Assembly: GCF_003334765.1 (NCBI RefSeq)
Contig: NZ_QOWT01000042.1
Direction: 5' to 3' (one strand)
From: Escherichia coli
Lineage (GTDB): Bacteria > Pseudomonadota > Gammaproteobacteria > Enterobacterales > Enterobacteriaceae
DNA length: 30,886 nucleotides
The translations under genes were made by a program, and so were the position numbers. This document shows, piece by piece, positions 8,424 through 9,536 of this stretch (positions are counted from its first letter, which is position 1; every line of letters begins with the position of its first letter). The notes under the pieces were generated by a model. The model was not told the origin of the DNA. It searched no databases and saw only the letters and a list, made by a program, of their open reading frames with translations.

Positions 8424-9086
8424 ATGACCATTACGTCTCTGGATGGCTATCGCTGGCTGAAGAACGATATTATTCGCGGTAATTTTCAACCGGATGAAAA
8501 ATTACGAATGAGTTTGCTGACATCGCGTTATGCACTTGGCGTTGGGCCGTTACGGGAAGCTCTTTCGCAACTGGTGGCGGAACGGCTGGTCACGGTGGTG
8601 AATCAAAAAGGGTATCGGGTGGCGTCTATGTCAGAGCAGGAGCTGCTCGATATTTTCGACGCCCGCGCCAATATGGAAGCGATGTTAGTGAGTCTGGCGA
8701 TTGCCCGCGGTGGCGATGAGTGGGAGGCAGACGTTCTCGCAAAAGCGCATCTGCTGAGTAAGCTTGAGGCCTGTGACGCCAGCGAGAAAATGCTTGATGA
8801 GTGGGATCTGCGTCATCAGGCGTTTCATACGGCAATTGTGGCGGGCTGTGGTTCTCACTATTTGCTGCAAATGCGTGAACGGTTGTTTGATCTGGCGGCG
8901 CGTTATCGATTTATCTGGCTGCGGCGAACGGTGCTTTCGGTGGAAATGCTGGAGGATAAACACGATCAGCACCAGACCCTGACTGCGGCGGTACTGGCGC
9001 GAGATACCGCGCGCGCCAGTGAGTTAATGCGCCAGCATTTACTGACGCCAATTCCCATTATCCAGCAGGCGATGGCTGGCAATTAA
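8424..9086 (+). CDS. csiR: GntR-family transcriptional repressor of csiD/gab operon, 220 aa
   Basis: Track ORF 8406..9086; start at ATG 8424 preferred because of caggag at 8411-8416; N-terminal winged-HTH GntR fold, FadR-like C-terminal domain. Confidence 0.85.
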   Translation: MTITSLDGYRWLKNDIIRGNFQPDEKLRMSLLTSRYALGVGPLREALSQLVAERLVTVVNQKGYRVASMSEQELLDIFDARANMEAMLVSLAIARGGDEWEADVLAKAHLLSKLEACDASEKMLDEWDLRHQAFHTAIVAGCGSHYLLQMRERLFDLAARYRFIWLRRTVLSVEMLEDKHDQHQTLTAAVLARDTARASELMRQHLLTPIPIIQQAMAGN

Positions 9087-9536
9087 CTACTCTTCCGGAA
9101 TACGCAACACTTGCCCCGGATAAATTTTATCCGGGCTTTTTAGCATCGGTTTATTCGCTTCGAAGATTTTATTGTACAGATTAGCGTTACCGTAGACCTG
9201 TTTGGAAATGGCACTCAGAGTGTCGCCAGACTTAACGGTATAAAACTGGCTGGCAGTGGCTGGTGTCGCCGTTTTCACCTGATCATCGACACTGGCAATA
9301 CCGGAAATATTCCCCACCGCAACAAGGATTTTCTCCTTCGCCTCCTGACTCAGGCCGTCACCAGTGACCGTCGCTTTGCCGTCGGCAATTTGAATATTCA
9401 CTTTATCGGCATCCGGTATACCGGTTTTGTTCAGATGCTCCTGCACCTTCTTCGCCTGATCGTCTTTATCGTGCTGACCTGTAACCGCGTCCCAGAGTTT
9501 TTCTCCGGCATCTTTCACAAAATTGAACAGACCCAT
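9087..9536 (-). CDS. ygaU: BON- and LysM-domain potassium-binding protein, 149 aa
   Basis: Track ORF 9087..9563 starts at GTG; ATG at 9534-9536 with upstream gaggt SD preferred ([15 protein letters not shown]...); C-terminal LysM motif [23 protein letters not shown]. Confidence 0.85.

Follow-up and report, generated by a model that had tools for sequence, protein, structure and literature searches.

The window analysed here, that is, the whole stretch of 30,886 nt, covers the gab/csiR-kbp-yqaE region of Escherichia coli K-12, and its positions 8300-9900 are 100% identical to MG1655 and to many other strains. Two genes converge in this region. The csiR gene (also glaR) lies on the + strand at 8424-9086, encodes 220 amino acids and ends with the stop codon TAA at 9084-9086, and the kbp gene (also ygaU) lies on the - strand at 9087-9536, encodes 149 amino acids and ends with TAG at 9089-9087, which reads CTA on the + strand. 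The stop-to-stop junction TAA-CTA (9084-9089) thus contains zero intergenic nucleotides. In the + strand, GGC AAT TAA (9078-9086) closes csiR and is followed directly by CTA CTC TTC, the reverse complement of the GAA GAG TAG that closes kbp, so that 9081-9092 reads AAT TAA CTA CTC. The first-pass annotation had claimed exactly this abutment of the two stops, and it is borne out by the sequence, the list of open reading frames and the RefSeq annotation of MG1655, where the coding sequences of csiR (3125-3787, +) and kbp (3788-4237, -) adjoin directly in the fetched locus.

Both proteins are supported up to their last residues. Residues 1-149 of Kbp are identical end to end to residues 1-149 of PDB 7PVC, 'Potassium binding protein Kbp', and the protein matches NCBIfam NF008399, being a BON-LysM potassium-binding protein. 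Residues 1-220 of CsiR match the NCBIfam CsiR equivalog NF008576 with 465 bits, and the Pfam domains GntR and FCD are found at residues 10-66 and 76-206, respectively. CsiR is the GntR/FCD-family repressor of the csiD(glaH)-lhgO-gabDTP operon, a function taken from Knorr et al. (2018), who proposed the renaming of csiR to glaR and reported that the csiD operon is repressed by the glaR product and that the repression is relieved by glutarate. An annotation artefact at the junction can be ruled out, since a solved structure and the equivalog models back both C-termini, and the two protein ends are real.

How widely is this arrangement shared? The 101-nt junction sequence is present at no less than 95% identity in 5219 of the 5426 complete E. 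coli genomes, and the zero gap is also annotated in the two divergent strains inspected, IHE3034 and EC21Z-151. Beyond the species, 80 kbp loci were fetched with one genome per species, and csiR adjoins kbp only in Escherichia, Salmonella and Citrobacter. In all 15 genomes with this adjacency the gap is between 0 and 12 nt: 0 nt in the K-12 window and in L004, 3 nt in L002, 6 nt in E. whittamii (L003), Salmonella (L005, L006), L007 and L022, and 12 nt in most Citrobacter (L008-L013, L021). Every one of these sizes is a multiple of 3. The changes correspond to in-frame movement of both stop codons, and the C-terminal tail of CsiR differs in length by 1-6 residues. Therefore, the exact zero is nothing special, and what these loci conserve is a spacing in which no terminator would fit. 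The window's three remaining convergent pairs are separated by 46 nt (ygaP/stpA), 36 nt (alaE/ygaC) and 63 nt (emrB/luxS), where terminators fit. In other Enterobacterales, kbp homologues that lack csiR downstream have a terminator composed of a hairpin and a U-tract after kbp (for example, L023, L025, L028 and L032). Since kbp has a canonical terminator elsewhere, the positioning of the csiD-gab-csiR cluster beside kbp may have removed the original one, and the tight junction would most simply be a by-product of that positioning in the lineage of Escherichia, Salmonella and Citrobacter.

Where, then, do the two transcripts end? Curated Term-seq 3' ends of MG1655 are available from Adams et al. 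(2021; eLife, PMC7815308), which is the source of both mapped ends used here. Each end is given there with a 61-mer, in which the end position is preceded by 50 nt and followed by 10 nt, a layout that we checked on the thrL stop codon, and both 61-mers map exactly to the window with the single offset of 2,787,250. On the + strand, the end at 2796391 corresponds to window position 9141, inside kbp, and is classed as "antisense ygaU"; it was called in one of three conditions, LB OD 2.0, with 1,697 reads. On the - strand, the end at 2796240 corresponds to position 8990, inside csiR, and is classed as "antisense csiR", with 23,751 reads in LB OD 0.4, 614,566 in LB OD 2.0 and 277,782 in M63, that is, an increase of about 26-fold from LB OD 0.4 to OD 2.0. 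It should be noted that the offset between the window and the MG1655 coordinates of Adams et al. is 2,787,250 at 8990-10798 and 2,787,243 at 26907-27634, which indicates a net 7-nt length difference between these two stretches.

Based on these ends, csiR has a 3' UTR of 55 nt (9087-9141, +), which is antisense to kbp over its final 18 codons, and kbp, with its steady-state end at 8990, has a 3' UTR of 97 nt (8990-9086, -), which is antisense to csiR over its final 32 codons. At steady state, the two transcripts are consequently fully complementary over 152 nt, from 8990 to 9141. It had also been argued from the sequence that the junction leaves no intergenic room for a terminator, so that each transcript has to enter the coding sequence of the other, and 3'-end mapping had been proposed as the check. 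The published ends, at 9141 in kbp and at 8990 in csiR, agree with that argument: both lie past the junction, which is the opposite of termination ahead of it. The argument needs one refinement, namely that 3'-end signals do exist, embedded in the open reading frame of the partner. The zero gap is therefore real, the overlap of the transcripts is supported, and published 3'-end maps account for most of the mechanism.

On the csiR strand, the signal is an intrinsic-terminator-like element of the csiR/gab transcript at 9115-9141 (+), identified by a terminator scan, by folding and by the Term-seq end. It consists of the stem-loop CCCGGATAA-ATT-TTATCCGGG at 9115-9135, followed by a C and by UUUUU at 9137-9141. 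The hairpin has a 9-bp stem (five GC and four AU pairs) and a 3-nt loop, is flagged as terminator-like by the consensus scan, and folds with a free energy of -12.9 kcal/mol (z -3.1). The mapped end at 9141 is the last U of the U-run, 55 nt past the csiR stop. The element thus shows a GC-containing stem-loop, a U-rich tract and an in vivo 3' end within that tract. In the other reading direction, 9115-9141 is encoded by the LysM-domain codons L132-K-S-P-D-K-I-Y-P-G141 of kbp. The sense strand of kbp carries the same palindrome, followed there by GCAAGUGUUG and without a U-run; the signal therefore works one way, and kbp does not terminate itself at this site.

Compared with canonical intrinsic terminators, the csiR element has the same 9-bp stem, 3-nt loop and U-run with a mapped RNA end, but it is located in the antisense of a coding region, within codons of the LysM domain. 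Its U-run counts 5 U against the usual 7-8, and it has no upstream A-tract, which again makes it unidirectional. It is therefore a modest terminator in both respects, the five U and the mixed stem. The bicyclomycin (BCM) experiment of Adams et al. was performed at OD 0.5, a density at which the 9141 end was not detected, and no Rho score is given for that end in the tables consulted. We infer that termination of the csiR strand at 9141 is intrinsic. RNA polymerase leaving csiR would read 29 nt into the antisense of kbp, make the 9-bp hairpin and CUUUUU, and terminate there.

The kbp end has a different appearance. At its 3' end, the kbp mRNA carries a GC-rich stem-loop, CUGGCGCG-(10 nt)-CGCGCCAG, at 8994-9019 on the - strand, as indicated by folding and by the Term-seq data; the stem-loop is encoded in the antisense of the csiR codons L191-A-R-D-T-A-R-A-S199. 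The 8990 end lies 4 nt downstream of this stable hairpin, which lacks a U-tract. Past the hairpin, the composition of the - strand and a Rho-score peak at 8561 mark a C-rich, G-poor candidate zone of Rho loading or termination at 8515-8982, and the C/G ratio of the - strand climbs from 0.9 to 1.25-2.2 over the stretch from about 9008 to 8515. The RNA downstream of kbp on this strand is probably untranslated, judging from its reading frames: the frame of kbp (frame 0 after TAG) meets a stop after 15 codons, and another frame is open for 57 codons. In supplementary file 2 of Adams et al. (2021; PMC7815308), a bicyclomycin-sensitive Rho region is listed at 2795811(-), that is, window position 8561, with a score of 6.63 and a p-value of 1.3e-18, and the downstream reads at 2795811(-) increase from 23 without BCM to 367 with BCM.

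These features resemble a class of 3' ends described by Dar and Sorek (2018, NAR), in which precise ends occur right after stable stem-loops without U-tracts, with more C than G downstream, sometimes inside downstream genes. Such ends are made by diffuse Rho termination followed by trimming by PNPase or RNase II. The kbp end is likewise precise, follows a hairpin without a U-tract, has C in excess of G beyond it, and is located inside the coding sequence of the neighbour. The BCM-sensitive Rho region is on the same strand, but its score peaks at 8561, some 430 nt further downstream than the 8990 end, a distance to be read with the 800-nt windows on which the Rho scores are based; in this the kbp end differs from that class. 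Taken together, the match of features makes Rho termination with exonuclease trimming the most likely origin of the 8990 end in our analysis. Polymerase leaving kbp would enter the antisense of csiR, where the untranslated RNA turns C-rich beyond about 9008; Rho would load and halt transcription of the kbp strand diffusely over the next few hundred nucleotides; and 3'-to-5' exonucleases would then trim the kbp RNA back to the 8994-9019 hairpin, leaving the precise and stable end at 8990. Rho could also be a mere backstop for read-through, and not the primary terminator of kbp. The explanation as a whole, namely a convergent pair in which each stop signal is located in the coding sequence of the partner, with intrinsic termination of csiR, Rho termination and trimming of kbp, and an obligatory overlap of 152 nt, is in our judgement likely to be correct.

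As for the 5' side of kbp, the promoter scan revealed no sigma-70-like promoter in 8000-10300. The 3' end of the yqaE mRNA was mapped by Term-seq at 2796831(-), corresponding to position 9581, after the hairpin CCGCGGCGTTAACGCGCCGCG and only 45 nt ahead of the start codon of kbp. The very abundant kbp transcript may start at a sigma-S promoter of its own, within yqaE or upstream of it, or may arise by read-through or processing of a yqaE-kbp RNA.

Could the 8990 end be made directly, without distant termination and trimming by exonucleases from there? Either hairpin-dependent non-canonical termination or pausing, or endonucleolytic cleavage, by RNase III acting on the sense/antisense duplex or by RNase E, with subsequent trimming as far as the hairpin, might produce it. 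The end is indeed sharply defined and highly abundant under each of the three conditions, and the maximum of the Rho score lies 430 nt further downstream. For RNase III, the 152-bp duplex is a substrate in principle, and overlapping transcripts have been described as targets of this enzyme. However, no U-tract follows the hairpin, and the features of the end fit the published Rho-dependent class. Furthermore, the RNA of the csiR strand is about 360-fold rarer, so most of the kbp mRNA cannot be processed by a cleavage that requires the duplex. We therefore regard a directly made end as quite unlikely.

Collision between converging polymerases, as understood by Ju et al. (2019) and by Wang et al. 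(2022), is a further model, which has been put forward for hundreds of convergent pairs of E. coli. According to this model, the polymerases pause at the hairpins, collide and dislodge each other, which would set both ends without an intrinsic terminator or Rho. A convergent pair with overlapping 3' ends and a hairpin beside each end fits the model, but the reads in LB OD 2.0 are lopsided, with 614,566 for the kbp end versus 1,697 for the csiR end (about 360:1), and with such expression the majority of the polymerases on kbp would never encounter one from the opposite side. The kbp end is, moreover, sharp in LB OD 0.4 and in M63, where the csiR end was not called. The two separate hairpins, 94 nt apart, and the overlap of 152 nt are unlike the shared-hairpin class, the csiR end has a normal hairpin and U-tract, and a Rho-dependent region is present on the kbp strand. 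Collision as the determinant of both ends is thus highly improbable. A shared bidirectional terminator is ruled out, as the 9115-9135 hairpin has no U-tract on the - strand and the two ends adjoin two different hairpins, 9115-9135 and 8994-9019.

If Rho termination with trimming on one strand and an intrinsic terminator on the other set the two ends, have the hairpins been selected for these roles? Covariation was assessed in 15 sequences of Escherichia, Salmonella and Citrobacter, with a column-shuffle control. For the stem of the csiR terminator, 89% of the cells are paired, with zero double changes and no excess over the shuffles among the 15 sequences. The antisense hairpin occurs in most kbp homologues, including those without csiR downstream, and its presence regardless of csiR marks it for the most part as a by-product of the motif P-D-K-I-Y-P-G and of the preference for the CCG codon. 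Selection on the csiR terminator hairpin was accordingly rejected, given the lack of double changes, the lack of excess over the shuffles and the independence from csiR. The T-run depends on the K-S dipeptide, which is found in Escherichia, Salmonella, Citrobacter and a few relatives. When the tail of kbp was recoded with synonymous codons, 7.8% of 2000 random recodings gave an antisense hairpin at least as stable and followed by no fewer than 4 T, so that the actual sequence does not stand out significantly. A weak hint of selection comes from the fifth U, which derives from a rare CTA leucine codon (3% usage in the long open reading frames of the window); where CTG is used instead, as in some strains of E. 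coli and in other species, the run has 4 U only.

The 8994-9019 hairpin of kbp is present in all 15 sequences, with 93% of the cells paired. It shows one compensatory change, from G-C to A-U, which is indistinguishable from the shuffles in the 15 sequences, and selection on this hairpin was likewise rejected, because a single compensatory change is within the range of the shuffles. The change is found in Citrobacter braakii (L009:3031-3086, corresponding to window 8994-9019), where the synonymous changes GCG to GCA and CGC to CGT in csiR turn one G-C pair into A-U, as a single event. From these comparisons, both signals look like exapted by-products of the encoded protein sequences. With no significant covariation, and with about 8% of the recodings as good as the natural sequence, the case for the terminator function rests on 3'-end mapping and not on evolution.

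A natural disruption of the element was also observed. In E. coli FAM21845 (L084:2501-3333, around window position 9139), an IS1 is inserted inside kbp, in the T-run after the terminator hairpin. The shared sequence stops at ...CCGGGCTTT, csiR is split from kbp, and the insertion replaces the C-terminus of Kbp, which is annotated in that strain as a 486-nt 'lysM' CDS.

The overlap can also be compared with known classes of convergent transcripts. It agrees with convergent excludons, a concept of Sesto et al. (2013), in that convergent neighbours overlap at their 3' ends with terminators located inside the neighbour's transcription unit: csiR and kbp are adjacent convergent genes, and the Term-seq ends give an in vivo transcript overlap of 152 nt. 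ExcludonFinder (NAR 2025, PMC12288877) has in fact catalogued 165 convergent excludons in MG1655, the pair 'glaR-kbp' included, and 146 of the 165 have terminators embedded in the transcription unit of the neighbour. Note that ExcludonFinder relies on the overlap of coverage-defined transcript boundaries (PMC12288877), which a gap of 0 nt produces almost automatically. The excludon concept in its regulatory sense involves mutually exclusive expression or RNase III processing, whereas for csiR/kbp it is the mapped overlap alone that corresponds, and this overlap falls wholly within coding sequence, as intergenic DNA is absent.

Another relevant class is that of the bidirectional terminators of Ju et al. 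(2019), with which csiR/kbp shares convergent transcripts and overlapping 3' ends. The window contains an example of that type at 27604-27634, the MicA/gshA pair, where one shared intergenic hairpin with A- and U-tracts serves both strands and the overlap is about 31 nt; in contrast, csiR/kbp has two hairpins in two coding sequences and an overlap of 152 nt. The MicA sRNA (Rfam match 27559-27630) has its 3' end at 27634 (+) and the gshA mRNA at 27604 (-), a 31-nt overlap at a classic bidirectional terminator. In addition, the stpA mRNA ends at 10798, 4 nt away from the stop codon of ygaP, and the luxS mRNA ends at 26917, 13 nt away from that of emrB, both classed by Adams et al. as antisense to a convergent neighbour. 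The stpA and luxS ends indicate that near-overlap of convergent 3' ends is common even within this window. Our literature search found no paper on the csiR-ygaU overlap specifically, and csiR/kbp is not mentioned in the SMRT-Cappable-seq supplements. The overlap is nonetheless already known as a member of a widespread and catalogued class, and it is an ordinary case of that class.

Does the overlap serve regulation? It might be a selected device, a true excludon, in which strong stationary-phase transcription of kbp would lower CsiR by interference or by degradation of the duplex and so help derepression of csiD-lhgO-gabDTP. Several observations are consistent with such a role: the tight junction is kept across three genera; the reads of the kbp end rise about 26-fold as LB cultures pass from OD 0.4 to OD 2.0; kbp transcription runs antisense to csiR over no less than its final 97 nt, and over as much as about 525 nt by the point where Rho halts it; the csiD operon is a target of repression by CsiR; and the pair is catalogued as an excludon. 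However, with a gap of 0-12 nt any 3' UTR overlaps, which makes the excludon listing nearly automatic, the hairpins show no signal of selection beyond coding constraint, and synteny within one clade may simply be inheritance. We hence consider a selected regulatory device rather doubtful.

A more elaborate candidate is a one-way valve. Strong transcription of kbp in stationary phase or under stress would invade csiR, limited by Rho after several hundred nucleotides, and lower CsiR, and the hairpin in the LysM codons, its U-tract extended in K-12 by the rare CTA, would have been recruited to stop csiR transcription from silencing kbp. This is a speculative proposal to which we attach little probability; if true, it would amount to an RNA-level feed-forward input to the derepression of the lysine/glutarate/GABA catabolic operon.

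Under the reading that we prefer, with each stop signal located in the partner and largely dictated by coding, the locus is a worked example of how transcripts can be ended without intergenic space, by a terminator in the antisense of a LysM domain on one side and by a Rho-type tail capped by a hairpin in the antisense of regulator codons on the other. When the 3' end of one of the two genes is deleted or recoded, the 3'-end signal of its partner is removed with it, a practical consequence for Keio-type knockouts, potassium biosensors based on Kbp, and genome recoding. By itself the locus opens no new question, as the phenomenon is widespread and catalogued.

Two further observations were made elsewhere in the window. 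An 'orphan' Term-seq end, called in LB 2.0 as well as in M63, is located at 13282-13283, after a hairpin and a U-tract and some 190 nt upstream of nrdH; it suggests a terminated leader or a small RNA in the 5' region of nrdHIEF. The Rfam family naRNA4 (nucleoid-associated ncRNA 4 / REP-type) matches 20884-20961 (+) with 72 bits, in the proX-ygaY spacer region.
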